The notes below the pieces were generated by a model, which saw only the letters and a program-made list of their open reading frames with translations, was not told the DNA's origin and made no database searches. DNA of 63,685 nucleotides, the filler included, from Candidatus Nanoarchaeia archaeon (GTDB lineage Archaea > Nanobdellota > Nanobdellia > Woesearchaeales > DATDTY01): assembly GCA_035290625.1 (NCBI GenBank). It is 4 parts of 4 records of this genome, joined end to end, with 100 filler letters (N's around TTAATTAATTAA, not from the genome) between each part and the next. Parts side by side here need not be neighbours in the genome. Positions count along the whole stretch, not along the records: positions 1 to 16,324 come from DATDTY010000024.1; positions 16,425 to 43,268 come from DATDTY010000027.1; positions 43,369 to 56,950 come from DATDTY010000029.1; 1 more part is not named here. One strand, written 5' to 3'. The translations under genes and the position numbers were made by a program. Below are positions 6,639 to 52,968 of this stretch, piece by piece (within the stretch, counting starts at the first letter, position 1; each line of letters begins with the position of its first letter).

Positions 6639-6796
6639 GGCTTTTTGCAGGGGCTTATCAGGGATGCCGCCGAGTTCGCTTCCAGTTTCCTTTGTTCATA
6701 TCGACATTCCCCGCCAGGGACGCCCCCCTTGTCGATGCGCTTCTTTTTTGCTGCAAAGCTCACAAAAAGGCGGCACCCTTCCCCCTGCAAAAAGCC
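6639..6796 (-). mobile_element. Fold-back MITE-like element, copy E1
   Basis: TIR GGCTTTTTGCAGGGG / CCCCTGCAAAAAGCC; internal TGCCGCC/GGCGGCA and ATCGACA/TGTCGAT stems; no TSD recognisable. Confidence 0.8.
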
Positions 6797-6867
6797 TTGA
6801 GGCACTTGGAAACTTTACTTAACAGATTTCTGCTAGCGCTAAGAATCGGAATGGAAGACTTTCATAC

Positions 6868-7482
6868 CTATTCCTTGACAGCCTCTGCGCTCCCGTTATT
6901 GACGAGGATATCTGCAATTTTATTTGGCAGGGAGGCTGTCTGCTCTGGCTCAAACGGCCCATAGATCTCAAGCTCAGTGCCGACAAACTGGGCGACAGGC
7001 TGGGTGAACTTAACCGTGGTTGTTTCTGGATTTGTTCTTGGATTGTTCTCTTGGTCTGTTCCCTTGCCAACCTTTTTACCCTGAAGCGCAACCTCAAGGA
7101 CAGTCCCCCTATGCTCTTCAAGCAGCTTCATCACCTTGTCAAACAATTCTCTCTCATCTTTCAAGAATCGTGAGGTATCAACAATGTTTGCAGGAGCCTT
7201 TGCCTTGTCCATGGCCATCCTCATCACCTTTTTTTGGCGCCTTTCATAGATCTCTTTTACAACCCTCCTGATATTGATAAGCTCCTTCTGGGTCTTTTCC
7301 TTTTCCGGAAGGGAGAATACGTCATCAGCGTGCTTTGAAAGAAGAATCTCATACTTCTGTGACAGGTATTCAGCTACGTCGTCAAAATAGCTCTCTGCAA
7401 GCTCCTGCAGCTCCTCTCTTGTGCGCTCGTTGCGAACAATCTCAAACAAGACCTGAAAGGTCATTCGAATCTCTTTATCCAT
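6868..7482 (-). CDS. DNA replication complex GINS subunit (Gins15/51-type)
   Basis: Helical A-domain (ERTREELQEL, RRQKKV) plus C-terminal B-domain FVGTELEIYGPF...ADILVNNG; lies next to L44e as is usual in archaea. Confidence 0.8.
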   Translation of the reverse strand: MDKEIRMTFQVLFEIVRNERTREELQELAESYFDDVAEYLSQKYEILLSKHADDVFSLPEKEKTQKELINIRRVVKEIYERRQKKVMRMAMDKAKAPANIVDTSRFLKDERELFDKVMKLLEEHRGTVLEVALQGKKVGKGTDQENNPRTNPETTTVKFTQPVAQFVGTELEIYGPFEPEQTASLPNKIADILVNNGSAEAVKE

Positions 7483-7610
7483 GCTCCCCCCTTATTGCTG
7501 GATTCATCCAAGGTTTATAAAGATTCGGGTTTCGACGGGCAGTGCATAACAATCCCTACCCGTGGCGGGCGCAAGAACCTTTATAAGGATAAGAATGCTG
7601 TTCGTGAAGG

Positions 7611-9008
7611 ATGAAGAAATCAGAGTATGTCATTTTGGGATTCATCCTGCTCCTCTATGCCTTTGTCAAGTTCCAGGGGATCTCTTACAGCATCAGCGAC
7701 GAGAATACCTATTTCTTTATGGCAAAAACGCTTGCAGACGGAAAGCTTCCGTACCGAGACTTCTTCCTTTCACATCCTCCTTTGCAGATCCTGGTCCTGG
7801 CTCTTGCGATTAAGGTATCTGGAGTGCATTTTATCCTTTTGAAGCTTGTCTCTACTTTGTTTATTGCTGGAGCGGGCATCCTCTTATATCTGCTTGGGAA
7901 AAGATTATATGGCAGGGTCGTTGGATTCCTCGCTTTGCTCCTGTTCCTGTTTTCCTTTGATTCTCTGAGATTCAGCACCTTTGGAAGCGGTATCAGCATC
8001 ACGCTGTTCTTTCTTGTTTTGGGATACTATCTGCATTTTCTGGAGAGGCATGCATTTGCCGGCGCAAGTTTTGCTTTGGCAGTATTGACGAGCTATTTGG
8101 CTGCTCCTTTTGGGGCATTTTATATTGGCTATCTATTCTTTAAAGATAGGAAGGGAGTTTTAAAAGCAGGGCTTGGATTCTTTGGGGTGATTCTCTTTGC
8201 GCTCATTGCCCTATTTTCTTTTTCAGGCTGGGATTTTGTTGAGCAGACTGTTTTGTATCATCTTGCCAAGCCTTCGTCGGGAACTGCCAGATTTTCCCTG
8301 CTTTTTAAGCAGTTCTTAGGAGAGTGGCTGCTGTTTTTTCCACTGCTTTTCCTTCCCTTTTCAAAAAAGGCGCGAGGCCATCTGATCTTAGGGAGCATTG
8401 TTGCGTATCTGCTGTTCTTGCTAAGCTTTCAGAAGCCCTTTGCATTCTACTATTTCCTGTTGTACCCATTTTTAGCATTGCTTTCTGCGTCTGTTGTTGC
8501 TGGTATCGGATGGATGGCTCATGTGAAGCTTACTGCTGCAAAGCATCATGTTGTTTTTGTCTTATTTTTTATTGTTGCAGCCCTTTCCTCATATTCTGCA
8601 TTTTCCTATCTTATCGATAACCGGCAGGAGGTCAGGGCAATTCCGGAGATGGTTGAATATATCAAGTCCCATACATCCTCTTCTGACTCTCTTTTCGGGG
8701 ATGATTCCCTGGTTCCGTTGATTGCCCTGCTCTCTGACAGGAGGATAAGCCTCGATTTCCTTGATTTGAACAACCTTCGCTTTCGGTCCTTGCCCGGGCT
8801 TGCTGAAGAGACTATTGAGAGACTGAAAGGGTCTGATTTGAAATATTACCTTGATTATCAGATTCAGATTGGGAATCTTGTTGGGAGGAATGGGCCGTCA
8901 GCTCTTGATGAGTTTCAGGCATTTTTAGAAGAGGAATGCAGTGTTGAGAAGGCATTTTCTGAGGAGGTTGAAGAGCAGGGGAGAACCTACACACTCTATT
9001 CTTGCTAG
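7611..9008 (+). CDS. Membrane glycosyltransferase, GT39/ArnT-like
   Basis: SDENTY, LPYRDFFLSHPPL motifs, multiple TM helices. Confidence 0.8.
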   Translation: MKKSEYVILGFILLLYAFVKFQGISYSISDENTYFFMAKTLADGKLPYRDFFLSHPPLQILVLALAIKVSGVHFILLKLVSTLFIAGAGILLYLLGKRLYGRVVGFLALLLFLFSFDSLRFSTFGSGISITLFFLVLGYYLHFLERHAFAGASFALAVLTSYLAAPFGAFYIGYLFFKDRKGVLKAGLGFFGVILFALIALFSFSGWDFVEQTVLYHLAKPSSGTARFSLLFKQFLGEWLLFFPLLFLPFSKKARGHLILGSIVAYLLFLLSFQKPFAFYYFLLYPFLALLSASVVAGIGWMAHVKLTAAKHHVVFVLFFIVAALSSYSAFSYLIDNRQEVRAIPEMVEYIKSHTSSSDSLFGDDSLVPLIALLSDRRISLDFLDLNNLRFRSLPGLAEETIERLKGSDLKYYLDYQIQIGNLVGRNGPSALDEFQAFLEEECSVEKAFSEEVEEQGRTYTLYSC

Positions 9009-9049
9009 AACAGCATCCTTTTTAAGAGCGCTTTAATTCTCGTCATAGG

Positions 9050-10267
9050 ATGGCAACATTAAGTTATGAAGATATTGTCTTTGAGGATGAGCAGGATCAT
9101 CTGAATGCGAGGTTTTCAAAGCTTTTCAGCTTTCGGATTCCGAAAGATGAGTTGCTGAAAATAGACAAGGGATTTCGGGCTGCAGAGCATCAGATTCTCT
9201 TTCCTGCGGTCGGGCAGGAGGTTGCTGAACGGAAGTTTTCCCATCTCCTGCAGAAGCATATTGCTGGGATGAGGAATATGCTTGGAGGAAAGCCTAGCTA
9301 CTACATCCATCGCAATTCCGGTATTCCTTTGTTTGGAACTAACTATTTCGGCCTTGTTGATCGAGGGACCAATATTATTGAGGTTAAGCCTATGACTGGC
9401 TGCAACCTGAGCTGCATCTACTGTTCTGTTGATGAAGGCGTGAATTCTCGACGGAAAGTTGACTATCTGGTTGAGGCTGCATATCTTATCCAGGAATTCA
9501 GGGAACTGGTTGATATGAAAAACATTGACGGCATTGAGGCCCATATTGGCGGGCAGACTGACCCTTCTCTCTATAGCCAACTGCCGGAGCTTGTTCGAGG
9601 TTTGGTTGCTGTCCCGCATGTCAAGGTTGTTTCCATTGACACGAACGGGTGGGTCTTGAGCAAGCAGAGGATTGAGGAACTGGCAGACGCAGGGCTTACG
9701 AGGATTAACTTGAGCTTGAATGCCGTAACTCCCGATGTTGCAAGGCAGATATCAGGAACCTCATTCTACTCTGTTGACAAGGTGCTGAAACTAATCCCCC
9801 TTATCTTGGAGAAGTTCGATTTGATTGTCGCCCCTGTATGGCTTCCTGGAATAAACGATCAGGAGATTCCCAAGATCATTGAGCACATCGTGGCTATTGA
9901 CAAAAAGAGGAAGGTAATCATCGGAATCCAGAACTTTCTCATTTATAAGCATGGAAGGAATCCCGTCAAACAGATGGGATATGATACATTCTATGCTAAA
10001 TTAAAGGAGTTGGAGAGCCACCATAAAGTATCATTGATTCGAAATAAGGATGATTTTCATATACAGAAAGCAAGGCAGCTTGAGAAGCCATTTGTGAAAG
10101 GGGATACTGTAGAGGCTGAATATGTGATGCCAGGAAGGCTGAGAAATGAGGCTCTTTACAAGGCAAAAGGAAGGATTATTGCTATTGGGAATGCAGATTC
10201 AAGGAAGAGGGCAAAAATCAGGATACTGCGGGATAAGCATAACATCTTTACTGGTCAATGCGCATAG
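9050..10267 (+). CDS. Radical SAM protein (archaeal COG2100-like) with probable C-terminal TRAM-like domain
   Basis: GCNLSCIYCSVDEG CxxxCxxC motif; DRGTNIIEVKP. Confidence 0.85.
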   Translation: MATLSYEDIVFEDEQDHLNARFSKLFSFRIPKDELLKIDKGFRAAEHQILFPAVGQEVAERKFSHLLQKHIAGMRNMLGGKPSYYIHRNSGIPLFGTNYFGLVDRGTNIIEVKPMTGCNLSCIYCSVDEGVNSRRKVDYLVEAAYLIQEFRELVDMKNIDGIEAHIGGQTDPSLYSQLPELVRGLVAVPHVKVVSIDTNGWVLSKQRIEELADAGLTRINLSLNAVTPDVARQISGTSFYSVDKVLKLIPLILEKFDLIVAPVWLPGINDQEIPKIIEHIVAIDKKRKVIIGIQNFLIYKHGRNPVKQMGYDTFYAKLKELESHHKVSLIRNKDDFHIQKARQLEKPFVKGDTVEAEYVMPGRLRNEALYKAKGRIIAIGNADSRKRAKIRILRDKHNIFTGQCA

Positions 10268-10269
10268 CT

Positions 10270-11127
10270 CTACGTATTCTTAGATAGGTATTCTTCGTAT
10301 ACCTGATCACCAGTCTTAACCCTGATATTATTCTGCTTGGCGTACCGGAGCAATTCTCTCAGATTCTGGATGTTTTCTTCTCTCTGCAGGGAAAGTACCC
10401 AGGGATGCAAAAGGATGGTGTATGTGCCCTCTGAGGCCTCTAGAGAGTCTTTTACTGCCTTAAAGAAGGCATTTGAATTATTATTCCTCTGAAGTACAAA
10501 CCAACCCCAGTCATTCGGGACAGGATTTATGGGAAGTTCAAGCAGGCCATCCACCCAGTAGGGATCCAACTCTGAGCTCCAGACAGAGCTGTCCCACGTA
10601 TACCCCTCTTCTACAAGGATCTTGAATGAGTCGTCTGTATAGTTTGTGTAGGGAAACCTATTCCCAACAACTGGTTTTCCAATTACCTCTTCAACTGTTT
10701 TTTTGCATTTGGAGGCTTCCTCTGTCATCTCTTGGTTTGAAAGATTAGCCTGAAGCCTGTGAGAGAAACTATGGCAGCTAATCCCCATCTCAGATTCCTG
10801 TAGGCTTCTTATTACCCTTGGATACCTCTGTGCTGTAAGACCAACAACATTAAACTGGAAGGCTACTCCTTCTTCCAATGCAAGATCCACCAGATCCCGC
10901 ATTGTTGCGAGCCAGGACTCTTCTCTGGGGGTATACATCAGAGCTTCGTTCGCAGTCATATCTCCAGGGAAGCCAACACCAAAGGGAAACTCGGTATCAA
11001 AGCTGATTATAACAGTCCTCTCTTGTTTAGGGTGCTCTTTCTGGTCTAAGTTCACAAACAAGAGGGCTATCAGTATGCCAATTCCACAAATAAGAACGAT
11101 TTCAGGCTTCAGGCGATTTTCTGGCAT
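10270..11127 (-). CDS. Polysaccharide deacetylase (CE4), membrane anchored
   Basis: ISFDTE, CHSFSH, RFPY, LLHPW motifs; N-terminal TM. Confidence 0.85.
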   Translation of the reverse strand: MPENRLKPEIVLICGIGILIALLFVNLDQKEHPKQERTVIISFDTEFPFGVGFPGDMTANEALMYTPREESWLATMRDLVDLALEEGVAFQFNVVGLTAQRYPRVIRSLQESEMGISCHSFSHRLQANLSNQEMTEEASKCKKTVEEVIGKPVVGNRFPYTNYTDDSFKILVEEGYTWDSSVWSSELDPYWVDGLLELPINPVPNDWGWFVLQRNNNSNAFFKAVKDSLEASEGTYTILLHPWVLSLQREENIQNLRELLRYAKQNNIRVKTGDQVYEEYLSKNT

Positions 11128-11176
11128 ATTCCATGGCTAAGAATCCTTATCCTTAATAATAATTTCTATAAACTCT

Positions 11177-11207
11177 AAAAAAAGAAAAAAAAGAAAAAAG
11201 AAGAAAT
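11177..11207 (-). terminator. Poly-T terminator of the S-layer gene
   Basis: Runs of T on the minus strand directly after the stop codon. Confidence 0.6.
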
Positions 11208-14327: not shown

Positions 14328-14528
14328 GGCTTCGGTGAAAATCCAGCAGTGGCTTGCGAGTGAGCTCGTTCTCACTCGCTCATAAGCCGCCGGCTGCCGC
14401 CGGCTCGGCTTGTGTTGTCCGTCTGTATATATATCGTTGAAGCCCCGAAGGGGCCAATCCCCTCAACTCAGTCTATGGCAATCATTAAGGGCCTCGCAAA
14501 AAAGGCGGCAGCCTTGATTTTCAAAGCC
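14328..14528 (-). mobile_element. Fold-back MITE-like element, copy E2
   Basis: Ends GGCTTCGGTGAAAATC / GATTTTCAAAGCC; flanks CTTTAGACT / CTTTAGGCC (7/9 TSD). Confidence 0.8.
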
Positions 14529-14576
14529 CTTTAGGCCTAAATCTTTTTATAGCAAGCCAGGTTACATCTCTGTGAT

Positions 14577-14710
14577 GCGGAGATGCCGGAGTGGCCAAAC
14601 GGGACAGGCTTAGGTATCTGGTGATGTGGTTACCTGTTGGCTTAGACAGAACGAGGCTAAACCTTCGTTTTGGAGCAGTGCCTACGCAGGTTCGAATCCT
14701 GCTCTCCGCA
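14577..14710 (+). tRNA. tRNA-Leu(TAG) with two introns (14615-14631 at position 37/38; 14646-14678 in the variable arm)
   Basis: Acceptor GCGGAGA/TCTCCGC, anticodon stem ACAGG/CCTGT around CT-TAG-G, T arm GCAGG-TTCGAAT-CCTGC; removing both inserts gives a standard Leu cloverleaf. Confidence 0.85.
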
Positions 14711-14837
14711 GTGAATGAAATAAACGAGGAGAGCAGACCAGGAATGAGTGCAGCGAATTCCGCTGCCTGCTCTCCGCAGTGAACGAAGTGAACAAGGGAG
14801 CAGACCAGCAACAGAGTTGTGCTGCCTACTCTCCGCA
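14711..14837 (+). repeat. Two tandem units, each ending in a copy of the tRNA-Leu 3' end
   Basis: Units 14711-14778 and 14779-14837 begin GTGAA(T/C)GAA, contain GAGCAGACCAG and end GCTGCCT(G/A)CTCTCCGCA. Confidence 0.8.
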
Positions 14838-14905
14838 GTTGTCTGTTACCAACTCAATAAACCAATAAGGGGCAAGAATATTACCCTATAACTGCTCCAA
14901 AGCCC

Positions 14906-15321: not shown

Positions 15322-15369
15322 GTTGCAAACCCTCTATTCTTTTTAAATCTTGTGCTGCTAAGTTGTTAA

Positions 15370-16323
15370 TGTCTTATCCCGAAACTATTTCCCTACGGTG
15401 AGTTACATTGGAGCATGAAACTCACCAGAGGAAGCTTATGGAGACCATAAGGCGCAAGAATGATGGCTGGACAACCTATCAAGCGAGGAAAATAGCCCGT
15501 GTTAGTATTAGGCGAGTGAACCAAGTTTACTCTGAGTACTTGGAAACCGGAAAGGTTCCTGAGATCGGCAGGAATAACGGCAGACCTTCTAAACCAGTTG
15601 AGGATTGGGAAATAGGTCTTGTACGGGTTGCCTGGGTTAAGTACAGAGTGTCAGCAGACACTCTAGAACCGCTCATTGAGCGGGATTATGGCAGGCACAT
15701 CGGTCATAACAGGATCCATAAGATAATGCTCACGCTTGGGTTTGCCAAGCCGAAAGCAAAGAAGGATGTGCGTAAGAAAGAGTGGATACGATATGAGCGA
15801 AGGCACAGCCTGACAGCTGTCCATATTGACTGGCACTATGACTGCGTAAACTATGTTTTTGCGGTTATTGATGATGCCAGCAGGAAAATCTTGGCACTGC
15901 TGGAATGCAATAGTGCAACCACTGACTTCTCAATCCAGGGGATGGAAGAAGCCTTGAAGCAGGGCAAGATACGGCAATGCATTTCTGACCACGGAGCACA
16001 GTTCATTGCCAATATCGGAGGGGATTCAAGGTTCAAGGCTTATCTTGAAAGCAAGGGTGTCCAGCAGATACTGTGCAGGATAAAGCATCCTCAAAGCAAC
16101 GGCAAGATAGAGAAATGGTTCGAAATATACGACAGACACAGACATGCGTTCGACAGCAAGGAAGAGTTTCTGCATTGGTACAACGAGGTAAGACCGCATC
16201 GAAGCTTACGCTTCGAGATTCTGGAAACTCCAGAGCAGGCATTTGTCAGGAAGATGAAAAAGGAGGCTTAATAAACATGAAACGAATTAAGCTATCGAAG
16301 GGAAATACTTTCAGGATAGCACA
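15370..16323 (+). mobile_element. IS481-family insertion sequence
   Basis: Imperfect TIRs TGTCTTATCCCGAAACTATTTCCCT vs TGTGCTATCCTGAAAGTATTTCCCT (reverse complement of right end); TGT...ACA ends; lies at a contig end. Confidence 0.85.
15408..16271 (+). CDS. IS481-family DDE transposase (rve integrase core)
   Basis: HIDW, VIDDASR, SDHGAQF, HPQSNGKIEK, YNEVRPHRSL. Confidence 0.9.
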   Translation: MEHETHQRKLMETIRRKNDGWTTYQARKIARVSIRRVNQVYSEYLETGKVPEIGRNNGRPSKPVEDWEIGLVRVAWVKYRVSADTLEPLIERDYGRHIGHNRIHKIMLTLGFAKPKAKKDVRKKEWIRYERRHSLTAVHIDWHYDCVNYVFAVIDDASRKILALLECNSATTDFSIQGMEEALKQGKIRQCISDHGAQFIANIGGDSRFKAYLESKGVQQILCRIKHPQSNGKIEKWFEIYDRHRHAFDSKEEFLHWYNEVRPHRSLRFEILETPEQAFVRKMKKEA

Positions 16324-16324
16324 G

Positions 16325-16424: not shown

Positions 16425-16572
16425 GTGGGGGGGGGGTTGCCATCGGCTCGGCTCTTGCCTTCTTGAGGAAAGAGCGGCACCTCCCCGTAAGGGGCTTCCC
16501 CCTCCGCTGTATTTTGTTGGCTTGCTTGAGCCTCGCGAAAATGATGGCAACCCTCAATGCTGCGCTGACGCC
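16425..16572 (-). mobile_element. Fold-back MITE-like element, copy E3 (truncated by gap; right boundary approximate)
   Basis: GGGTTGCCATC / GATGGCAACCC stem, GCTCGGCTC / GAGCCTCGC, AGCGG...CCCCGTAAGGGG...CCGCT core. Confidence 0.75.
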
Positions 16573-17772: not shown

Positions 17773-17979
17773 AGCTGCGTTCAAAATAGGGGTTGCCGCC
17801 AATGTCGCGAGGCTCAATAAACCAGAGGAAGCGCAGCGGAGGAGGTTGTCCCTTACGGAGAGGCGCCGCTCTTCGCTGAAAACTGCAGGAGCCGAGCTGC
17901 TCCGAAGGAGCGACCAAAAATGCAGGGCATTTTTGAGCACGGCGGCAACCCGAGCAACTGCGAGATTTTGAACGCTGCC
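17773..17979 (+). mobile_element. Fold-back MITE-like element, copy E4
   Basis: TIR (A)GCTGCGTTCAAAAT / ATTTTGAACGCTGCC; GGTTGCCGCC/GGCGGCAACC; GCGAGGCTC/GAGCCGAGC. Confidence 0.8.
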
Positions 17980-20887: not shown

Positions 20888-21093
20888 GGTGGCATTGAAA
20901 AGTCATGCAGCGCCCTTTTGTGAGCCATTATAAAGGAGCAGCGGCGCAGCGACAAGGGAGTTGCTCCCTTCGGGGAATGTCGCTATCCTGCCTGACTTGA
21001 GCATGGCGAACTGCTCCGCAGGAGCGACCAAAAATGCGAAGCATTTTTGAGTACTGGCATTGCCGAACGAAGTGAGAAACTTTTCAGCGAGCC
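20888..21093 (+). mobile_element. Fold-back MITE-like element, copy E5
   Basis: Perfect 9-bp TSD CTTAACCTC at 20879-20887 and 21094-21102; TGAAAAGT/ACTTTTCA arms; AGCGACA/TGTCGCT core. Confidence 0.9.
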
Positions 21094-32061: not shown

Positions 32062-32139
32062 GGCCCTATCCCGATTGAAGGTTGCCGCCTCTTTCGCGAG
32101 GCTCTGCAACCCAAAACACGCGAGCGCCGGGCAGCTTCA
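32062..32139 (+). repeat. Left-half fragment of the fold-back element family
   Basis: GGC...GAAGGTTGCCGCCTCTTTCGCGAGGCTC matches the left arm of E4/E9. Confidence 0.6.
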
Positions 32140-36297: not shown

Positions 36298-36460
36298 GGC
36301 TCTGCTGAAATCCGGTGCAGTGCCCATTTGCGAGGTCAGTATTCCAAAGAATGAGCATCGACAAGGGGGTTGCCACCTTCGGGGATATGTCGATATATTC
36401 ATAAACGAGCTGAGACCGAGCCCGGCACTGCCGAGCGAAGCGAAGGATTTCAGCAGAGCT
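36298..36460 (+). mobile_element. Fold-back MITE-like element, copy E6
   Basis: TIR GCTCTGCTGAAATCC / GGATTTCAGCAGAGC; GCAGTGCC/GGCACTGC; GCGAGGTC/GACCGAGC; ATCGACA/TGTCGAT. Confidence 0.85.
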
Positions 36461-37977: not shown

Positions 37978-40900
37978 ATGAAAAGTCTGCTCATGCTGAT
38001 TTTTGTTTTCACGCTTGTTATAAGCCCCGTGTCTGCTCAGGCTAGTGCAACCCAATGTAATGATGGGATTGACAATGATAATGATGGGAAGATAGATGTC
38101 CTAACTACAGGAAATCATGTTGCTGTTTCAAGGTGGGTAGCTGGTTCAAATTGTGGCACTGTTTGTGGGTCTGTTGCTGGTTTTCACAGTGCCCGCGATG
38201 CCCAAGGTAACTCTTGTACCTCCGGAGAATCGGTAATCAGTAATGCACGGAATAGCCTAGGCGCCGCCATATACCTATATGGCTGCTGGCCAGGAGGCTG
38301 TGCTTCCAGTGGACAGGCAAGAGATGCCCAGAGAACAACGAGTTATGGATCTTACTGTTATCGAGAAGGGCAGAGGTCCGATGACGATATTACTGATATC
38401 ACCGTAGCATGTCATTGCGTAAGCAACGATTTCTTTGTATGCAATGATGGAATTGATAACGACCAGGACGGTTCTACGGACACGCAAGATAGCGGATGTA
38501 ACGGCGAGGAAGATAACAGCGAACTCCAGCATGATGATGGTTGCTCATCCACTTCTGACAACGACGAAACAGGTCAGAACGATTGTGAAGGTAACCATTT
38601 TGCATGGCAGGGATCAATTTCGCAAAATCCATGCTGCGGCGACGATGAATCCGATTACAGCTTCTCCTTAGGAAACAAGCTCTGCATCAAAAACCCCCAA
38701 GGAGCATGGCAATGGATCACAGGCACAACAGGCCAAGTCGTAACTGGGGAACAAGACAGCATTGATAATGATCTTACCACCCAGCATGACTTTATGTATG
38801 ATGGAACACAGTGGAAACAGTGCATGAACGTACCCGATGCAGACGCTCAACAACCACCCGACCGAACAGAATCTGTCACTTGGACAGCCACTATTGGAGA
38901 AGGCAACAACCAATGGTTCGAGGCAGAGAAGTTGGATATAAGAGGCGATGGCGTAAGTAACCCTTTCACGTATATTGACGGGCCGAGAACCCATGCGTAT
39001 GGATACACTGAAGACCTCAGGACAATCCAATCCCCAATCTACAAAGATGATGTAACAGACTTAATATCCCAAACACAAATCCTGCATAGACTATTCTCAA
39101 CATCATCTGTTGTTTCAAACAGCCCATACTGCACAGACAATGCAATCTGTACAGGAAGAGGTCCTCTTGCCGCAGCCTGTCTCTCCCACCGTCCTCCAAT
39201 ACCCTCTGCCTACTGCATTAATGCAATCGACGCAATTTCATTCGTGTACTCGGCTGCGCCTAAAACAATCACCTTTACAGCAACAGCGCAATCACCAACT
39301 TCTCCACGGCATCCTGCATTTAATGTATATCTTGGAGCCGGCCCCTCTCAATGCGGTAAGTCCTGCGCAGACGCAGCTACATGCACCCAGCAATGCAGCA
39401 TAGACATTCCAAGGGGTTGGTCTCAAATGCGCTTCTCAGCAACCTCATATAAAGTAGGGCCAACGGCAAGGAACGTTCAGCTTTCTCTCTCAGCCCCAAT
39501 TTCCTCACTGGTTGACGCCCTGCACTTCAGCACGGAGTGTACCATAGCCGCCCTCACCAAAACCGGGAGCTTTAGCATCCCATTTGCTTCAGGAGAATAT
39601 ACTAAAGACGTGACTGATCAGTTCACCTTCAACGATTGCCTGAATTCTGTAGGTAAAAGCAGCCTCTCAATCACAGACATGAACGAGAACGTCATAATCT
39701 ACCCAGAAGATGACAAAATCATGGCTTGCCTTGATACAGATCATGATGGTAACTGTGACACAGCTCCCGGCAGCGCTGCCAGTAACACCCAGCCCGTTGA
39801 TATTAACCAGAGAGCAACAGCAAATACCCATGAGTATTTCTGTTCCCAAAGTGGCGCAGAACAAAATGCAAACTACGCATTCTCCGAGTGCTGCGGAGAC
39901 GAAACTGAAGACGAAACCGAATCATGTTTATCAGAGAGAGCAACAAATATCTACCATACAGCAGACCCGGAAACCTTCTCCGATACTCCTTATGTATGCT
40001 TAAATGATAAAACCTGGAATTCTAATATAGATTTTGACGCAAACCAGCAAAATTGTGAAAGAGGCGGCTACCAATGGGCTCCAGCAAGCGGATCAGCTCC
40101 TGGCTTCTGCTGCGGAGATGGAGATCCAGAAGATAACGGAAAAAGAAGCGCTGATAATAAGTATCTCTGCGTTCATGCCAACACAGGAAACGCATGGTTC
40201 CTCAACGACGCAACAACATCAAGACACCTCGGAACCATCCGCCGCCCAGCAGGAAAAGACTACCTTTCAGACGGCACATCCTGGAAAAAATGTGAAAACT
40301 CCAGATTTGACGGAGACGGAAACCCAACAGTCGTTCAGATTACTAATCCTTCCAGAAGCGACCAAGACATCTGCATCGGAAACGAGGTTTATGAGTGTGT
40401 AGGAAGTCAAACAGTAAATGGATTTATAAATTTAGCAAATAGAGCAAAACACACAGGAAACATAGTTCTAGACGGATTAAATCCATCCAATCAGATCAGA
40501 TATTACTGTGCCTCAGGAAACTTCTTTACAACAAACCTGGATACTCCTCCTCCTACAAGCGACCCAAGAACAACCGTACCGCCAAATTCCAACTTTGAGG
40601 CAACTTGCAGAGCTGCCCAATTAACTTGGACAGGCCGCTATTGCTGCTCAGAAGCAGAAGATTCCCAAGTAGCAGAAGACGCCAAGGAAACTTATAATGA
40701 TGAAGGCGGCACAGGAATATGCGCCTACAGCCAATTTAAACCGAATGGCCCACTAGCTGATACTCCTAGAATCCTCGTTGTTAACGGAGTTGCCCAAGGC
40801 TGCCAGGCAACCTCGCAAGAGTTAGCACTCCAAAATCACCCTGATCCCGCAAATGACGACTCCTTAGGCCCACTTATCACAGCAAACCCTCTTTGCACAA

Positions 40901-42246
40901 TAAAAACCATCACAAGCGGCGCAACTGAAAATAAATATTACTGCAGCCCAACAGGCTGGCAAGTAACAGAAACCAGCCTAAACCGGCGATACGCTCCAGG
41001 CGCCACCCCAACCGACACTCTCCAGCAAGACTGCTGTCCTGCGAATAAATGTTATAACCCTACGGGTGGCGCTAATGCTGCTCCTGCCTGTGTTGATCCA
41101 GGCGAAACAGCCATTCAGGGCGGATCCCAATATATCTGCGAAGCAGGAACTTGGCAGCAAACCTCAGCAAAACTCAACTGGGATAATGAAGCCGGCTACT
41201 GCCGCGAGCCAACTCAATGCCTTGTCAATCCAAACCCATCAGAGAGCGCAGCCGCAACATTAGCTGGTCTTGAAACTCTCGGCATTGACGACGCATCAAA
41301 TAACGACATCCACTGCATCGACTCCGGCCAATACATTGGCGACCACTATTGTGAATCTGGAAAGTGGACAACCCGCACAAAGCTCCTTGCCTTAACTCTC
41401 AGGGACAGCCCCGACATCAATGGAGAAGACAAATACACGATTTATTGTGATACCTATGATAAGGTTGCGAACAGCTATGGATACTCACTCCCAGAAGCAC
41501 TGCCACAATTTGATGTAAACCAGATCTTTGCTCCATCAGATCCAAAACAAAGGCTCGCCAATAATGTTTGTGTATTGGTTCTCGATGACGGCACAGCGGC
41601 ATTTGGAACATCTTTGAATCAGCCATTTAATGAACCTCAACAAAGAGGCAACGCCCAAGTCAATATCTGGGACCTTGTTGATGCTGAGCAGAACGATTGT
41701 AATGTTAGAATCCCTGGAGACAATTCCATGCAATTCTGCATAGGAAACCAGCTTTGGTATAACCCCTATCTCCAGCTGATGGTCTATTCAAAAGAAGGGA
41801 TAACCCTCAATACCCCCAATTTCGCGCAGCAAACAACAGCATTCCTCTCTAATCCAATAAGAGCCATAATGAATTTAATCAACAGATTCAGAGATACTAA
41901 TCCAACACTCGCAGTCAACGAATTCCTCAGCCAAACAAAAAACTTTGACACCTTGTACCTTGCAAAAAACGGAGAAAGAGAAGTCAAGGCATTCATCGAG
42001 GAAGGGCTTGGAGACAATCACGACAAAGACCATTTCTCAGCGCTCTTCAGCTGCTTTAACGAAGACATCTGCACGAGCATAGAATCAGAGTACCCCCCAA
42101 GCACTAATAATGATGTCCGCTGCTCGGTCCAAGGCACAGACTCAGCTGTGCAATTCCAAAGAACTAGGCAAACCTCAGCAGAAGTCTGGACCAGCCTCAT
42201 CTCTTCATTGCGGCTGAATGCAGACACCAAAAACGCCTGCGATTAA
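37978..42246 (+). CDS. Large secreted cysteine-rich surface protein
   Basis: Signal peptide; repeated CNDGIDNDxDG and CCGD motifs; 1422 aa. Confidence 0.75.
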   Translation: MKSLLMLIFVFTLVISPVSAQASATQCNDGIDNDNDGKIDVLTTGNHVAVSRWVAGSNCGTVCGSVAGFHSARDAQGNSCTSGESVISNARNSLGAAIYLYGCWPGGCASSGQARDAQRTTSYGSYCYREGQRSDDDITDITVACHCVSNDFFVCNDGIDNDQDGSTDTQDSGCNGEEDNSELQHDDGCSSTSDNDETGQNDCEGNHFAWQGSISQNPCCGDDESDYSFSLGNKLCIKNPQGAWQWITGTTGQVVTGEQDSIDNDLTTQHDFMYDGTQWKQCMNVPDADAQQPPDRTESVTWTATIGEGNNQWFEAEKLDIRGDGVSNPFTYIDGPRTHAYGYTEDLRTIQSPIYKDDVTDLISQTQILHRLFSTSSVVSNSPYCTDNAICTGRGPLAAACLSHRPPIPSAYCINAIDAISFVYSAAPKTITFTATAQSPTSPRHPAFNVYLGAGPSQCGKSCADAATCTQQCSIDIPRGWSQMRFSATSYKVGPTARNVQLSLSAPISSLVDALHFSTECTIAALTKTGSFSIPFASGEYTKDVTDQFTFNDCLNSVGKSSLSITDMNENVIIYPEDDKIMACLDTDHDGNCDTAPGSAASNTQPVDINQRATANTHEYFCSQSGAEQNANYAFSECCGDETEDETESCLSERATNIYHTADPETFSDTPYVCLNDKTWNSNIDFDANQQNCERGGYQWAPASGSAPGFCCGDGDPEDNGKRSADNKYLCVHANTGNAWFLNDATTSRHLGTIRRPAGKDYLSDGTSWKKCENSRFDGDGNPTVVQITNPSRSDQDICIGNEVYECVGSQTVNGFINLANRAKHTGNIVLDGLNPSNQIRYYCASGNFFTTNLDTPPPTSDPRTTVPPNSNFEATCRAAQLTWTGRYCCSEAEDSQVAEDAKETYNDEGGTGICAYSQFKPNGPLADTPRILVVNGVAQGCQATSQELALQNHPDPANDDSLGPLITANPLCTIKTITSGATENKYYCSPTGWQVTETSLNRRYAPGATPTDTLQQDCCPANKCYNPTGGANAAPACVDPGETAIQGGSQYICEAGTWQQTSAKLNWDNEAGYCREPTQCLVNPNPSESAAATLAGLETLGIDDASNNDIHCIDSGQYIGDHYCESGKWTTRTKLLALTLRDSPDINGEDKYTIYCDTYDKVANSYGYSLPEALPQFDVNQIFAPSDPKQRLANNVCVLVLDDGTAAFGTSLNQPFNEPQQRGNAQVNIWDLVDAEQNDCNVRIPGDNSMQFCIGNQLWYNPYLQLMVYSKEGITLNTPNFAQQTTAFLSNPIRAIMNLINRFRDTNPTLAVNEFLSQTKNFDTLYLAKNGEREVKAFIEEGLGDNHDKDHFSALFSCFNEDICTSIESEYPPSTNNDVRCSVQGTDSAVQFQRTRQTSAEVWTSLISSLRLNADTKNACD

Positions 42247-43128: not shown

Positions 43129-43268
43129 GGTCGCATTGAAAAGTTGCTCACTTCGTTCGGCAATGCCGACTTCGCCTTGTGCATACTCTCATGGGAAGCG
43201 ACATTTCCCGTATGGAGCAACCCCTTTGTCGCTGTTCTGTACTTTGAATAGAAGGCTCACAAAGGGCA
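43129..43268 (-). mobile_element. Fold-back MITE-like element, copy E7 (truncated by gap)
   Basis: End GGTCGCATTGAAAAGT resembles E5; CTCACTTCGTTCGGCAATGCC shared with E5; AGCGACA/TGTCGCT core. Confidence 0.8.
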
Positions 43269-43368: not shown

Positions 43369-43441
43369 ATTTTCGACATCCTTTCGAACCGAGGTCCTCA
43401 GGTCCAAAGCCTGAGATGCTTGGCCGCTACACCACGGGGCT
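43369..43441 (-). tRNA. tRNA-Gln(TTG), 5' part; interrupted in the T-loop and cut by the gap
   Basis: Minus strand AGCCCCG-TG-GTGTAGCGGCCAAGCAT-C-TCAGG-CT-TTG-GA-CCTGA-GGAC-CTCGG-TTCGAA then non-tRNA AGGATGTCGAAAAT. Confidence 0.85.
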
Positions 43442-43489: not shown

Positions 43490-43649
43490 GTCTCTGGTGA
43501 AAATCCCGCTTCGCGGCTGCCGCCAGGTTCGCCTCGTGCTGTTTTGAGTGTTAAGCGACATTCCCCGTAGGGGGCAACTCCCTTGTAGCTACGATGCCTT
43601 TACCTTCTCGGGCTCACGAAAGGCGGCAGCAATGATTTTCACCAGAGCC
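43490..43649 (-). mobile_element. Fold-back MITE-like element, copy E8
   Basis: TIR CTCTGGTGAAAATC / GATTTTCACCAGAG; core closely similar to E10. Confidence 0.85.
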
Positions 43650-46573: not shown

Positions 46574-46612
46574 GGCTCTCCTAAACGAAGGTTGCCGCCT
46601 GTTTTGTGAAGC
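46574..46612 (+). repeat. Left-end fragment of the fold-back element family
   Basis: GGCTCT...GAAGGTTGCCGCCTGTTTTGTGAAGC. Confidence 0.5.
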
Positions 46613-46634
46613 TTGGGAGCAAGACATCAACAGT

Positions 46635-47491: not shown

Positions 47492-47572
47492 TTTCAAGTT
47501 TTTTGGCGAAAACTTGAAAATAAGTTTCGAAGTTTCGTTTTGGCGAACGAAACATTGGCGAATGTTTGCGAA
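47492..47572 (+). promoter_or_regulatory. Tandem TTGGCG-loop hairpins in the ftsZ upstream region
   Basis: TTTCAAGTTTT-TTGGCG-AAAACTTGAAA; GTTTCGTT-TTGGCG-AACGAAAC; AAACATT-GGCG-AATGTTT; TATA-like TTTATATA at 47458. Confidence 0.55.
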
Positions 47573-47704
47573 TTCTTAAGTAGGAAGATGAATAAGCTTC
47601 CTTAAATACTTTTCGCTAGTTGGAACTATATACTTCAGTATATAGATTAGCGGAAAGAAGGCAAAACCAAGGGAAATGAAAAAGCCAAAAAGGGGGGAGA
47701 GAGA

Positions 47705-48787: not shown

Positions 48788-48861
48788 CACCCTTGGTTTT
48801 TGTGTGCTGTGTTCTTTGCCTTCATTTACCACCCCCAACACGTAATGAAGGCAGCTGTTAC

Positions 48862-48892
48862 TCTTCACCCGCTTTTGGGTGAAGATTTTTTT
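48862..48892 (+). terminator. Hairpin + T-tract terminator after ftsZ
   Basis: TCTTCACCC-gctttt-GGGTGAAGA followed by T7. Confidence 0.6.
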
Positions 48893-48971
48893 ATTTGGAT
48901 CTATTGCAACCGGCAGGTGGAATAGGCAAAAATAATTAGATTTAAATACAGTCAGCTACCATCTTTGCCTC

Positions 48972-50933
48972 ATGTACCGTACACATACCTGTGGAGAATT
49001 GCGGAAGAAGGACGTGAAGAAGAGTGTCCGGCTTACAGGCTGGAACCAGAGCAGGAGAGACCACGGCGGAATCATCTTTATTGATGTGCGGGACCGGTAT
49101 GGGTTGACGCAGATCGTCTTTGATCCAAAGCACAAGAAGGATGTCCATGCATCTGCCGAGCACCTGAGGAGAGAAGATGTTATTGCCATTTCAGGAACAG
49201 TTAGGCTGAGAGGCAAGGGGCTTGAGAACCTAAAACTGGAGACAGGGGAGATTGAAATTCTGGTTGATGAATTGACAATCCTAAACAAGGCAGAGACCCC
49301 ACCTATTGAGATTGATGATCGGATTGAGGTAAGCGAGGATATTAGCCTTAAATACCGCTATCTGGAGCTGAGAAAGCCAAGGCTGGCACGCAACATTAGG
49401 GTACGGAGTGAGGCAGTGAAGATAGTGCGTGATTATTTTCACTCCAATGGCTTCCTTGAGATTGAGACTCCAATCCTGGCAAAATCCACTCCGGAAGGGG
49501 CAAGGGATTACCTGGTTCCGTCGCGTGTGCACCCGGGAAATTTCTATGCGTTGCCCCAAAGCCCCCAGCTGTTCAAGCAGCTGTGCATGATTGCAGGCCT
49601 AGACCGTTATTTCCAGATTGCGCGATGCTTTCGTGATGAGGATTTAAGGGCGGACAGGCAGCCAGAGTTCACCCAGATTGATGTCGAGATGAGTTTTATT
49701 GACGAAGAAGATATCCACCGCCTTATGGAAGGCATGGTGAAGGAGATCTGGAAGAAGGTTCTTGGCATTGACCTGAAGACACCATTTCGAAGGATGCTGT
49801 ACAGCGAAGCAATGGCAAAGTATGGAAGCGATAAGCCTGACTTGCGCTTCGGCCTGGAATTGGTTGATGTCACAGATATCGTCAAGGCCTCTGGCTTTCA
49901 GGTATTCACAAAGAACATAGCCCAAGGAGGCGTTGTGAAGGCCATCAATGCAAAAAAGGCAGGGCTATCAAGAAATGATATTGACGGGCTGATTTCGTTT
50001 GTGCAGGCGCATGGCGCAAAAGGCATGGCATGGATGAAGGCGACTGAAAAGGGCCTCGAGAGTTCGGTTGTAAAATACTTCAGCGAGGATATCCAGAAGG
50101 AACTGAAGAAGGCACTTCAGGCAAAGCCGGAAGACCTGCTGTTGTTTGTCTCTGATGTTAAAGAATCGGTTGTCCATGCTGCATTAGGTGCGCTGCGCCT
50201 GGAGCTTGGAAAACAGCTCAACCTGATCAGAAAAGGGTATGAGTTTGTCTGGGTAACTGACTTCCCCTTCTTGGAATACAAAGAGGATGAAGGGAGGTAT
50301 GAGGCAATGCATCATCCCTTCACATCGCCAAAGCCGGAAGACCTCAGCCTTTTGGAATCTGAGCCCCGCAAGGTGAGGGCTCGTGCCTATGACCTTGCCT
50401 TAAATGGAGTCGAGCTTGGCGGCGGAAGCATACGGATCCACGATTCAGCAGTTCAAAAAAGGGTATTTAATGTCCTGGGGATCACAGACAAGGAAGCTGA
50501 GGAAAAGTTTGGCTTTCTGCTTTCTGCGCTCAAGTACGGTGCGCCGCCTCATGGAGGGATTGCGTTTGGCGTTGATCGCCTTGCTGCTATGCTTTGCGGA
50601 GAAGAAAGCATTCGTGAAGTCATTGCTTTCCCGAAGAACAAAGCTGCGCAGTCATTGATGGAAGGATCTCCTTCTCCGGTCTCTGAGGCTCAACTGAAGG
50701 AGCTTGGGATTAGATTGGACCACATTAAAGGGAAAGGGGGGTCCAGAGCAATCGTGTCCCAGACTGAAAGCGCAAAACATGACGCCGAAATGGAGATATA
50801 CAGAAATATGGGGGAGATCGAAAGATTGCAAGCTGAGAAAACTGCCTTGGAAACTAAAGGCGAGATGGAACATTTAAAATCAAAAGTAGAAAGAATGAAG
50901 GAAAATGAACGTAACAGGCAGAAAGATGTTTAG
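48972..50933 (+). CDS. aspS: Aspartate--tRNA ligase, bacterial type (GAD insertion), probably non-discriminating
   Basis: MYRTHTCGELR, RRDHGG, LPQSPQLFKQ, RDEDLRADRQPEFTQ, MHHPFT, GAPPHGG. Confidence 0.95.
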   Translation: MYRTHTCGELRKKDVKKSVRLTGWNQSRRDHGGIIFIDVRDRYGLTQIVFDPKHKKDVHASAEHLRREDVIAISGTVRLRGKGLENLKLETGEIEILVDELTILNKAETPPIEIDDRIEVSEDISLKYRYLELRKPRLARNIRVRSEAVKIVRDYFHSNGFLEIETPILAKSTPEGARDYLVPSRVHPGNFYALPQSPQLFKQLCMIAGLDRYFQIARCFRDEDLRADRQPEFTQIDVEMSFIDEEDIHRLMEGMVKEIWKKVLGIDLKTPFRRMLYSEAMAKYGSDKPDLRFGLELVDVTDIVKASGFQVFTKNIAQGGVVKAINAKKAGLSRNDIDGLISFVQAHGAKGMAWMKATEKGLESSVVKYFSEDIQKELKKALQAKPEDLLLFVSDVKESVVHAALGALRLELGKQLNLIRKGYEFVWVTDFPFLEYKEDEGRYEAMHHPFTSPKPEDLSLLESEPRKVRARAYDLALNGVELGGGSIRIHDSAVQKRVFNVLGITDKEAEEKFGFLLSALKYGAPPHGGIAFGVDRLAAMLCGEESIREVIAFPKNKAAQSLMEGSPSPVSEAQLKELGIRLDHIKGKGGSRAIVSQTESAKHDAEMEIYRNMGEIERLQAEKTALETKGEMEHLKSKVERMKENERNRQKDV

Positions 50934-51772
50934 ATTTTCTTTGAGAATTTAGTTATCTCCTCAGCAAGTTCAGAAGCAAGATACGTGTATCCTTTCTTTT
51001 TCTTAAGGGCATCTCCTGCCCTGCCGTTATAGTATGCTGCGAGGCAGGCTGACCTGTAGAGATCGTGAGTTTGCGCCAGGAAGCCTGCTGTTAATCCTGC
51101 CAAGACGTCTCCTGTGCCTGCCTTTGTCATGCCTGCGTTCCCTGTTCTGTTGAAGGTTATTCTTGTTTTTGAGATGATTGCGTCAACAGGGCCTTTCAGG
51201 AGGAGGATGTTATTGTTTAGTATCTTCCTTACTATTGATAATTTCTTTTTTAATGATGCCTTCTTATTGAATATCTTCGTTAGTACTGATTTTTCAATAC
51301 TGGAGTTTTTTAATAGTATCTCAAACTCTTTTTTATGAGGTGTGAGGACTGCGTTTTCAACCGTTCTTATGTTTATTATTTTTAATGCGTCTGCGTCAAT
51401 GACGAGGTATTTTTTATTTTGTACAGAATATGCGACTGCCTTTTTAATGAGTTTCTTTGTGGCTGGCTTTACACCCGCGCCGTTCCCAATTAAGGTTACA
51501 TCATGGGTCTTGATGAGTTTCTTTAATTCAGGATAATGGCTTGTTGAGATATAATCGCCTTTGAGCTTTTTTGTAATGAGGTCTGGGCTTAATTTATTTA
51601 TCGCCCAGGCAACCTTTTCAGGCGCAGCAATCGTTACCCAGTCTGCTCCTGATCTCAGGCAGGCAATCCCTGCCAATGCAACTGCTCCGACATAGTCTGC
51701 TGAGCCCCCGATAATCAGGATTCTTCCATTGTCGCCTTTATGGCTGGCCGGATCCCTTGTAACTGGATGCAT
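50930..51772 (-). CDS. nnrD: ADP-dependent NAD(P)H-hydrate dehydratase
   Basis: SHKGDNGRILIIGGS, VIDADAL, LTPHKKEF, KAGTGDVLAG. Confidence 0.9.
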   Translation of the reverse strand: MHPVTRDPASHKGDNGRILIIGGSADYVGAVALAGIACLRSGADWVTIAAPEKVAWAINKLSPDLITKKLKGDYISTSHYPELKKLIKTHDVTLIGNGAGVKPATKKLIKKAVAYSVQNKKYLVIDADALKIINIRTVENAVLTPHKKEFEILLKNSSIEKSVLTKIFNKKASLKKKLSIVRKILNNNILLLKGPVDAIISKTRITFNRTGNAGMTKAGTGDVLAGLTAGFLAQTHDLYRSACLAAYYNGRAGDALKKKKGYTYLASELAEEITKFSKKI

Positions 51773-51816
51773 GACATATCAGGAATTCTGGAGTATATAA
51801 ATTTTAACTGAAATCA

Positions 51817-51978
51817 GGCTCAGTAGAAAGTCGTCGTTGCCGCCATTTTTGCGAGGCTCTATAAACTTAAGGAAGCGCAGCGGAGGGGGTTGTCCCTTAC
51901 GGGCGAGGTGCCACTCTTTGCCAAAAACATGCAGAGCCGAGCTGGCGGCAACCGCGAAGCTGGACTTTCTACTGAGCT
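51817..51978 (+). mobile_element. Fold-back MITE-like element, copy E9
   Basis: TIR GCTCAGTAGAAAGTC / GACTTTCTACTGAGC; flanks CTGAAATCA / CCGAAATCG (7/9 TSD); overlaps the stop codon of the EEP gene. Confidence 0.85.
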
Positions 51979-52721
51979 CCGAAATCGAAAGAGGCCATCA
52001 GAGGGTAATGGTCTGAGTATTTCTCCGGAAGGATCCCTGCCTCAGAGCAGGTGATATCCCCCCGATAGAAGATATAATCAATCCGCATTTTAACCCAGTA
52101 CCTATAGGAGGGGCCTGCATCAAAAGGGACAGCAGGGCGAAGCCGATTCTCAAAGATAAACTGTTTAAGAACGTCGCTCCGCGGAAACGCGTTGAAATCG
52201 CCTGTCAGGATTACATTCTTGGGGCTTTTTTTAAGAAATCCGCTCAGCCGCCTCATCTGGGATCTCCGGTCATAGGGGGTCAGCCCAAGATGGGTAGTGA
52301 TGACGCGCACAAGTTTCCCCTCAATCCACAAATCTGCATAGGTCGCTCCTCTTGCAATGGGCGGAACCCCGAACTTGGTGTGGACAAAGTGATGGGAGTT
52401 AAGCGCAACGTTCCCGTGGTTGATGAATTCTATCTTGCTAAGGATAGCATTTCCTGAATTCCGGTGGTGAAGAATCTTATGGTTGAAGCCGGCGGTGAAA
52501 TGGATGAAGCCTGCTTTCCTCATTAATGTGCGGATATGATTCTCTCTCTTTTTTGGCGAAAGCCCGATTTCCTGCAGGCAGACGATGTCATAATTGCTGA
52601 GCTGGCTTGCGATGTCGTTTGCGATCGTCTTCTTGATCTTTCTCCTGTGGAAGATATCAATGAGGGCTCTGGCGTGGCTCTTCCCGGAAAGATATTTGAG
52701 ATTATAGGTAAGCACGCGCAT
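51969..52721 (-). CDS. Endonuclease/exonuclease/phosphatase family protein
   Basis: LTYNL, DIVCLQE, GNAILSK, TGDFNA, IDYIF, SDHYP. Confidence 0.9.
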   Translation of the reverse strand: MRVLTYNLKYLSGKSHARALIDIFHRRKIKKTIANDIASQLSNYDIVCLQEIGLSPKKRENHIRTLMRKAGFIHFTAGFNHKILHHRNSGNAILSKIEFINHGNVALNSHHFVHTKFGVPPIARGATYADLWIEGKLVRVITTHLGLTPYDRRSQMRRLSGFLKKSPKNVILTGDFNAFPRSDVLKQFIFENRLRPAVPFDAGPSYRYWVKMRIDYIFYRGDITCSEAGILPEKYSDHYPLMASFDFGAQ

Positions 52722-52769
52722 GGAAAGGAAAAGTTGATTGTTCTATTTAAAGGTTTTCTGATGCAGAAA

Positions 52770-52968
52770 GGCTTCGGTGAAAATCCCGCAGTGGCTTGCG
52801 AATGAGCTCGTTCTCAGTCGCTCACAAGCCACCGGCTGCCGCCCAGTTCGCCTCGTACTGTTTTGAGTGTTAAGCGACATTCCCCGAAGGGGGCAACCCT
52901 CTTGTCGCTGTGATGCCTTTGCGTTCTTGGGCTCACGAAAGGCGGCAGCAATGATTTTCACCGCAGCC
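52770..52968 (-). mobile_element. Fold-back MITE-like element, copy E10
   Basis: Perfect 9-bp TSD ATGCAGAAA at 52761-52769 and 52969-52977; TIR GGCTTCGGTGAAAATC / GATTTTCACCGCAGCC. Confidence 0.9.

Follow-up and report, generated by a model that had tools for sequence, protein, structure and literature searches.

The folded repeats scattered through this DNA are miniature transposons of a tiny archaeon, and they land at the upstream edge of promoters. The family is one of DDE-type MITEs, and sequence comparison supports selection on the inner fold. We put at about 0.5 the probability that these are non-autonomous elements whose folded interior is the conserved unit, the fold aiding copying or movement in cis. 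The window, by which we mean the whole stretch analysed (63,685 nt), comprises four contigs of a Candidatus Nanoarchaeia archaeon joined by N spacers. By nhmmer, the 1.37-Mb genome gave 183 matches and the reversed genome gave none, so the family is not a product of chance; nearly all matches are 100–300 nt long, and the copies make up about 2% of the genome. Extending the search to other genomes, as an earlier sequence-only reading of the window had proposed, placed the family in 46 of 151 genomes of the order. That reading had also called the family unrecognised, which holds in that an Rfam covariance-model search returned no match at E ≤ 1, although this search was not fully sensitive, two tRNA-like genes of the window having escaped it as well; the kind of element is nevertheless known, being a DDE-type MITE. 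The tip motif had no match in viral contigs, and one partner transposase had no relative among them. A loose pattern scan of genome contigs gave, among the matches listed, chance hits in GC-rich bacteria and was set aside.

An element was found at all twelve places reported for the window, comprising ten copies and two fragments. The reported positions stood, except that E1 is larger than described, having a second, outer pair of ends. E1 (6609–6824, minus strand) is thus a composite, in which inverted repeats of the TGT...ACA type lie outermost, flanked by a perfect 5-bp target duplication, and enclose a GGC...GCC unit (6639–6796) that holds the folded core and has no duplication of its own. 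E3 and E7, previously listed as copies, are truncated at contig ends: E3 (16425–16572, minus) is cut by the start of contig C27 and lacks its right end, while E7 (43129–43268, minus) is cut by the end of C27, resumes on C22 and has a perfect 8-bp duplication. The E7 core is identical at a second locus (C80/C56), which has its own perfect duplication. The basic form is represented by E6 (36298–36460, plus; 163 nt, duplication 6/9, TATA box 15–16 nt from the left end), E8 (43490–43649, minus; lacking a duplication and lying upstream of the promoter of a tRNA gene) and E9 (51817–51978, plus; duplication 7/9, TATA box 16–17 nt from the left end). Cassettes occur in E2 (14328–14528, minus), a full copy with a hairpin cassette, one degenerate end and a 7/9 duplication; in E4 (17773–17979, plus), full with a two-hairpin cassette and a decayed 4/9 duplication; in E5 (20888–21093, plus), full with a perfect 9-bp duplication and a TATA box 16–17 nt from the left end; and in E10 (52770–52968, minus), with a hairpin cassette, a perfect 9-bp duplication and TATA boxes on both sides. 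A tRNA-Leu-like gene has E2 upstream of its promoter. Fragment F1 (32062–32131, plus) is a left half between divergent eIF2-beta-like and TBP genes, and F2 (46574–46617, plus) is a short left-end fragment.

Terminal inverted repeats, target duplications of 8–9 bp and IS5-like partners whose ends are the same place the family among the DDE-type MITEs. What had been described as an outer stem is the terminal inverted repeat, GGC...GCC in most copies and flanked by the duplications. The duplications and the MITE nature had escaped the sequence-only reading; its suggestion of mobility was borne out by the duplications and by recent movement. Perfect duplications of 8 or 9 bp flank 35 of 123 copies and, outside this genome, perfect 9-mers flank 18 of 62. 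Two loci with identical cores, each with its own perfect duplication, record recent movement, and DDE-type duplications flank all the young copies examined. When seven transposases were searched by tblastn against 108 element loci, no transposase gene was found inside the elements. The partners lie elsewhere: C49 carries an intact 967-bp IS5-like element, and further ends lie at contig breaks; the ends of a second element (C66/C28) match one MITE subfamily, and IS5-like elements of relatives also carry matching ends. The IS5 family has the signature Y-(2)-R-(3)-E-(6)-K, and both the DDE and the Y-R-E-K residues are invariant in 26 partner proteins. Against the NCBIfam model for IS5-family elements, NF033579, the three partners scanned scored 98.9, 88.3 and 130.6 bits, all below the curated cut-off of 140; matches above the cut-off occur in 22 of 301 genomes of the order. 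PF13737 is absent from the genome, and its sole PF01609 match (C61, 518 aa) was rejected as a partner, having no family-type ends. As for an origin of the interior by deletion from a partner, model R1 found only a 35-nt tip module in the 3′ region of one clade. Reciprocal exchange of duplications between copies gave one 8/9 case against 0.3 expected, which is unconvincing, and the 40 relatives drawn for empty sites included none of the same genus or family.

The copies had been described as independent of neighbouring genes, which does not hold: 72 of 123 have a TATA box 12–21 nt from an end, where chance predicts 8.6%. Within the window, a looser pattern places a TATA-like box about 13–20 nt from an end at 11 of the 12 places (after a 3-nt correction to the ends of E2 and E3). 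With copies in either orientation, the duplication stops roughly 6–7 bp upstream of TATA, and orientation relative to the host transcript shows no bias (25:24). Landing of this kind may reflect target capture beside bound TBP/TFB, for which the core would not be needed. Two unrelated end families place their duplications at equal distance upstream of TATA, which suggests that archaea offer a general safe-landing route at TBP/TFB.

Read along one strand, the core runs through three stems: P2, followed by a T-rich bulge; P3, which contains the tandem GA:GA and is followed by an unpaired loop; and P4, which bears a tip made of a G-run, a C-run and a G-run. The unpaired loop, of about 18 × 18 nt, is free in sequence and fixed in length. 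Tandem GA:GA is present in 101 of 105 parsed genome copies; in some relatives it is replaced by plain pairs or by GGA:GGA. Arm lengths are constant at 30–31 nt across genomes, with a left/right length correlation that is partly a parsing artefact. The 36 cassettes among 98 copies all sit at two junctions, so insertions avoid the stems. In the window, the GA:GA helix variants reported for E3/E4/E9, for E5/E8/E10 and for E6, and the second stem of E3 and E6, read as had been quoted; the shared apical stem holds in part, since E8 and E9 have it damaged and E2 has a different type. On inspection, a kink-turn reading was ruled out by two covarying pairs between the bulge and GA:GA, and C/D and H/ACA readings by the lack of box motifs.

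Several lines of evidence bear on selection. A covariation check with a tree-based null found 12 pairs above the null maximum in the ends (P1) and in all three inner stems, seven of them in P1, only one in P2 and two each in P3 and P4; the null is home-made, with 20 null alignments, and mosaic copies violate its tree assumption. When 41 copies were aligned by MAFFT, 82% of cells paired, compared with 67% under column shuffles (reached by 0 of 500) and 35–42% with slid partners. Fold z-scores were −3.9 to −6.0 in seven of the ten window copies and only −1.4 to −1.7 in E3, E5 and E7. Private changes, taken from 44 of 132 copies, amount to 1.2–1.4% in P3 and P4, 2.9% in the ends and 5.2–7.4% in loops, P3 and P4 having 4–6 times fewer than the 18 × 18-nt loop. 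Covariation, private-change rates and the shuffle test thus agree with the earlier proposal that the fold is selected and that simple MITE decay does not account for it.

The same core occurs between three types of end. Besides the GGC-type ends, of which about ten subfamilies share the core fold, it lies between TGT-type ends (5-bp duplication, perfect in 6 of 11), as in E1, and GTA-type ends (8-bp duplication in two copies). One conserved interior in three unrelated end types again suggests that the fold itself is selected. Transposition as such does not need the fold, since the autonomous elements are mobile though they lack the core, and further TGT-type MITEs have different interiors. A search for the TGT-end transposase found none; an IS481-like element in the window was rejected because its ends differ from those of the TGT-type MITEs, and a candidate autonomous TGT element proved to be a sugar dehydratase gene. 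On the core tree, the end class changes 37 times, compared with a minimum of 10, and 14 mosaic pairs show a reshuffling of left and right loops among copies. Some cores appear to be end-less (L234, L236, L244 and one copy each in L229 and L257); the end-less core pattern was found in none of 401 genomes of the phylum.

As to whether DNA or RNA is the working form of the fold, the loop motifs lean towards DNA. Side-hairpin loops are GNA triloops in 81 of 122 cases and GNRA in one, and the tip loop, on the other strand, reads c-GNAN-g (G in 134 and A in 111 of 157), with only 51 of 157 in the UNCG register. The triloop counts are not independent, given shared ancestry, and in other genomes none of 19 loops counted was a GNA triloop. 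The DNA-type motifs do not share a strand, the tip loop lying on the one opposite GA:GA and the triloops. Both tandem GA and GUAA loops also rank as good RNA motifs. An RNA fold, either a protein-bound transcript with the 18-nt loops as guide or spacer, perhaps for locating the element's own DNA, or a terminator or insulator at the promoter edge, is in our view unlikely, though worth weighing. It would account for the likeness to guide RNAs of a stem, tandem GA, two free loops of fixed length and a conserved tip, for the 16:8 excess of G-T over A-C in P3, for the commonest tip loop outside this genome being GUAA, a GNRA loop (21 of 41), and for the tip module seen again in one IS5-like clade, within its 3′ non-coding region (L224, E 0.004; L225, E 0.011). 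However, G-U (G-T) pairs are rare (P2 8/693, P4 11/630), the alignment shows no conserved internal promoter, orientation is unbiased towards host transcription, and across 104 copies the loops give no guide-like match to flanks, ends or each other above shuffles. Selection in cis would also require that the transcript act on its own copy. Folding and processing of MITE transcripts have been described (PMC10969869, PMC3184786).

We consider it improbable that the core is a selfish unit with a separate route (HUH transfer, reverse transcription or nuclease gene conversion) that is merely housed in MITE shells. The three end types, the apparently end-less cores, the mosaics and the excess of end-class changes would fit, as would a genome with six Y1 matches and one reverse transcriptase, yet the DDE-type duplications of all young copies examined argue against it, and the mosaics are explained by ordinary recombination among 180 dispersed copies. 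Moreover, the three Y1 loci read, out of six, are IS200-like with hairpins of their own, adenine bias is absent (loop change rates A 0.061, C 0.054, G 0.091, T 0.055), and the 37 neighbouring proteins scanned include no transposase, HUH or recombinase family. More doubtful still is an absence of fold selection, with template switching in quasi-palindromes restoring symmetry as a mutational by-product. Both ends can change together, to a different end class on each side, around cores only 3.3% apart, as one arm templating the other would produce, but template switching would erase mismatches, whereas GA:GA is kept; nor are loop halves more complementary than shuffles, and the constant arms and the avoidance of stems by insertions also count against it.

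We favour a cis-acting fold in a DDE-type MITE, most likely working as DNA, either single-stranded at the replication fork or as a duplex fold-back. The fold would raise the chance that an element of about 160 bp is copied or moved, possibly by bringing its two ends next to each other, given the cost of plain looping in so short a duplex. Such help would not depend on which transposase reads the ends, so that the core could be recaptured by other ends through recombination and nesting. A bolder version, which we hold only tentatively, makes the core a transposase-independent booster, maybe a duplex fold-back, spread over the archaeal order through recapture by unrelated IS ends. Each of the two 18-bp loop segments might then stay paired with its own complement, the two lying next to each other and bounded by strand-exchange junctions, and host or element proteins would recognise the structure. 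MITE interiors are usually regarded as filler between ends. In this family the interior exceeds the ends in conservation and is common to three unrelated end types, and what makes certain MITEs amplify so successfully thereby becomes directly testable.

The family resembles IS5-family elements and IS5-derived MITEs in its roughly 15-bp GGC inverted ends, which we take to be IS903-like, its 8–9-bp duplications and its 270–320-aa DDE partners. Unlike in IS5-derived MITEs, the interior is not a deleted partner copy, its fold is shared by ten or so subfamilies, and it also occurs in two non-IS5 end types. REP/REPIN elements with RAYT, and IS200/IS605 ends, are dispersed non-coding hairpins with DNA-type loops; here, in contrast to REP/REPIN-RAYT, there are inverted ends and 5–9-bp DDE-type duplications, and a RAYT-like gene was not found beside the copies. 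The IS110 bridge RNA has stems around variable internal loops, whereas the loops here match no target flanks and the partners are DDE transposases. Closer in form is bcr1 of the B. cereus group, described as about 155 bp, mobile, transcribed and cruciform-like, with two stem-loops, 5-bp direct repeats and a fold kept by compensatory changes; the passages seen give no fixed-length double loop, end-type exchange or promoter targeting (PMC3184786). TnGBS, ISLre2 and ISKra4 likewise insert at a fixed distance, 15–17 bp upstream of a promoter element, and their symmetric ends allow both orientations, as here (PMC3942029). Those are bacterial Mutator-like elements at the sigma-A −35, whereas here IS5-like elements and a second end family meet archaeal BRE/TATA promoters.

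Identical copies sit at contig ends, so their apparent absence is an assembly effect. Among the joints listed from four low-depth sequencing runs, none was an E8–E10 crossing joint. Family copies break the genome assembly and appear to mediate rearrangements; the flank of E8 joins a different copy on C71.

The elements are miniature non-autonomous transposons (MITEs), a point absent from the sequence-only reading. Identity between the two flanks is maximal at 9 bp, where 18 of 148 are perfect, and one subfamily has an 8-bp duplication (13 of 21 perfect); overall, 35 of 123 copies carry a perfect 8- or 9-bp duplication and 42 of 123 have an identity below 60% at 8–9 bp. An identical copy of the E7 core stands at a second locus, and each of the two loci has a perfect duplication of its own. 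The ends fall into about ten symmetric types, and IS5-like elements bearing matching ends are present both in relatives and in the host genome. Contig C49 holds an intact 967-bp IS5-like element, five further ends of which lie at contig breaks; both ends were found for a second IS5-like element, the left end being identical to that of one MITE subfamily. The partner transposases carry the DDE triad and Y-R-E-K residues, and their best profile is NF033579, with scores below cut-off. No empty site could be shown: the 40 relatives drawn include none from the same genus or family, and no joint across E8–E10 is among those listed for four low-depth runs.

Other features of the host genome were noted alongside these. 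A second MITE, 219 bp long, whose ends are those of the C49 element and which the core profile does not pick up, lies at C15:2072-2290 and C30:15139-15357. At the ends of C34 and C9, a MITE copy has its tip interrupted by another element, which has 12-bp inverted ends and made a 9-bp duplication. In the 3′ part of the C49 transposase gene, a coding stretch of 16–17 nt looks like a permuted form of the tip motif, which may be chance. C68:38030-38677 contains a reverse transcriptase frame of 375 aa.

The host genome comprises 1.37 Mb in 84 contigs, four of which (C24, C27, C29 and C35) are linked by N spacers in the window, where genes for PolD, TBP, Cdc6, MCM, FtsZ and a tRNA endonuclease mark a small archaeon, probably Woesearchaeota-like. 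A gene neighbouring one related element carries the label Nanoarchaeota in its source. Two long frames, at 37978-42246 (1422 aa) and 4496-6265 (589 aa), have no Pfam match at E 1e-4. All twelve places assigned to ten copies and two fragments do hold the element, and the whole-genome search proposed with them gave 183 matches with an iterated profile, against 0 in the reversed genome. Of 151 genomes in the order, 46 were positive with a covariance model, the host genome and the unpublished G131 being counted among them; in the phylum 27 of 151 were positive, with the listed matches all within the same order. The element had not been recognised as a described family, and Rfam indeed returned 0 matches, in a search that also overlooked two tRNA-like genes in the window. 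Our literature search found no description of the family. A Woesearchaea genome has been reported to hold 105 candidate MITEs per Mb (PMC11602168), and the element sequences may already be in the supplements of that paper.

The folded core consists of stem P2, a T-rich bulge, stem P3 with its tandem GA:GA, a large loop, stem P4 and a tip. In a tree-based covariation test on 132 near-full copies (our own script in the manner of R-scape, with 20 null alignments), 12 pairs exceeded the null maximum: seven in the outer stem, one in P2, two in P3 around the GA:GA and two in P4. A pair counter on 41 copies, whose shuffle disregards kinship, gave the same picture. For the 44 copies, out of 132, that have close neighbours, private substitutions amount to 1.4% in P3, 1.2% in P4, 2.1% in P2 and 2.9% in the ends; the loops reach 5.2% and 7.4%, rates that conversion tracts may have inflated. 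No adenine bias was seen among the substitutions in these 44 copies. The P3–P4 loop has about 18 nt per side in the 105 of 123 bounded copies readable by our parser, and in these no complementarity of the loop halves with each other, the flanks or the ends was found. The spacing from GA to P4 is mostly 29–32 nt on both arms (91 own and 55 outside copies). Optional hairpin cassettes were found inside elements only, and 98 parsed copies have them at no more than two junctions. Covariation, substitution rates, fixed lengths and cassette positions together therefore uphold the earlier inference that the fold is under selection. Compensatory changes that keep the fold of a mobile repeat have a precedent in bcr1 (PMC3184786).

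The copies sit at promoter edges. In 72 of 123 copies a TATA-like box stands outside an end, at a distance of 12–21 nt, compared with 8.6% of 5,000 random intergenic positions, and in 56 of 59 classified cases it is directed at a gene start; the orientation of the element relative to the gene is balanced (25:24). An ATG peak, obtained without the TATA pattern, stands 45 nt from the ends (27 versus about 4). The promoter-edge peak recurs outside the host genome, in 39 of 62 copies. Among the autonomous GGC-ended entries it is present in 18 of 25, a few loci being entered twice. Purging of insertions at harmful sites would not by itself produce this peak, which is too sharp given how wide the free space on the opposite side is. 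Insertion may instead be captured beside bound TBP/TFB. Five pairs only 7–9 nt apart (four MITE-MITE, one IS-MITE) look as if two insertions had occurred at one site. Insertion at a fixed place relative to a promoter is known from TnGBS/ISLre2 (PMC3942029); our literature search found no account of targeting relative to the TATA box in archaea.

What is conserved is the fold rather than the ends. E1 extends over 6609-6824, where TGT...ACA ends, flanked by a perfect 5-bp duplication, enclose its GGC-ended unit; the host genome has four complete composites of this type. In genome G093, TGT-type ends immediately flank two cores, with no GGC ends in between. Perfect 5-bp duplications flank 6 of 11 paired TGT-type elements, and 10 of the 11 have a TATA at 10–15 nt, so that there too the duplication stops some 6–7 bp before the box. 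GTA-type ends occur in two metagenome copies, with 8-bp duplications matching at 8/8 and 7/8, and for five core copies ends were looked for and none were found. Along the core tree, end class changes 37 times, against a minimum of 10 and 82 when shuffled; our own classifier finds discordant ends in nine copies, some merely decayed. One IS5-like clade has the tip module too, in its 3′ non-coding region.

The majority of outside TGT-type elements have other interiors. Loci L404, L378, L380, L384, L390, L400 and L407 are TGT-ended MITEs that carry 5-bp duplications and have rod-like interiors of other kinds, that of L404 being similar to the 3′ non-coding region of a 318-aa IS5-like clade. Core-like folds lie between yet other short inverted ends at L216:3019-3172 and L257:180-350. 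At 15360-16324 in the window is an IS481-like element, below the cut-off of NF033577, whose own ends start with TGT; on C52 and C53, MITE fragments lie next to it.

We favour a DNA over an RNA fold by roughly two to one, judging from sequence motifs. Side hairpins have mainly 2–5-pair stems, and c-GNA-g triloops, very stable in DNA (PMC3201870), make up 81 of 122 side-hairpin loops counted, though these counts share ancestry, and 0 of 19 loops counted outside the host genome is a GNA triloop. On the opposite strand the tip loop reads c-GNAN-g, which fits stable DNA tetraloop classes named in the title of a reference cited by PMC3201870; the UNCG register has least support. G-T pairs are few, which also points to DNA. 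Against DNA it can be said that the DNA-type motifs are spread over different strands, and that GUAA loops and tandem GA suit RNA as well.

DDE-type insertion, promoter-edge position, selection on the fold and end exchange are established, and the fold would help in cis. Most simply, it could draw together both ends of a very short element or form on lagging-strand DNA during transposition. The boldest form would be a duplex fold-back in which each loop segment remains paired with its own complement; this would account for why loop sequence is free, why loop lengths are fixed and equal, and why cassettes are palindromic.

Some elements lie beside tRNA genes. At 14570-14850, a tRNA-Leu-like gene, apparently intron-bearing and overlooked by ARAGORN and Rfam, precedes two hairpin cassettes, both terminating in a copy of the tRNA 3′ end. 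A partial tRNA gene occurs on the minus strand at 43369-43440 and at the ends of C64 and C71; its promoter flank runs into E8 on C29 but into a different copy on C71, which suggests either that the region was rearranged or that two strains are present. A pair similar to this split flank is seen on C2 and C60.
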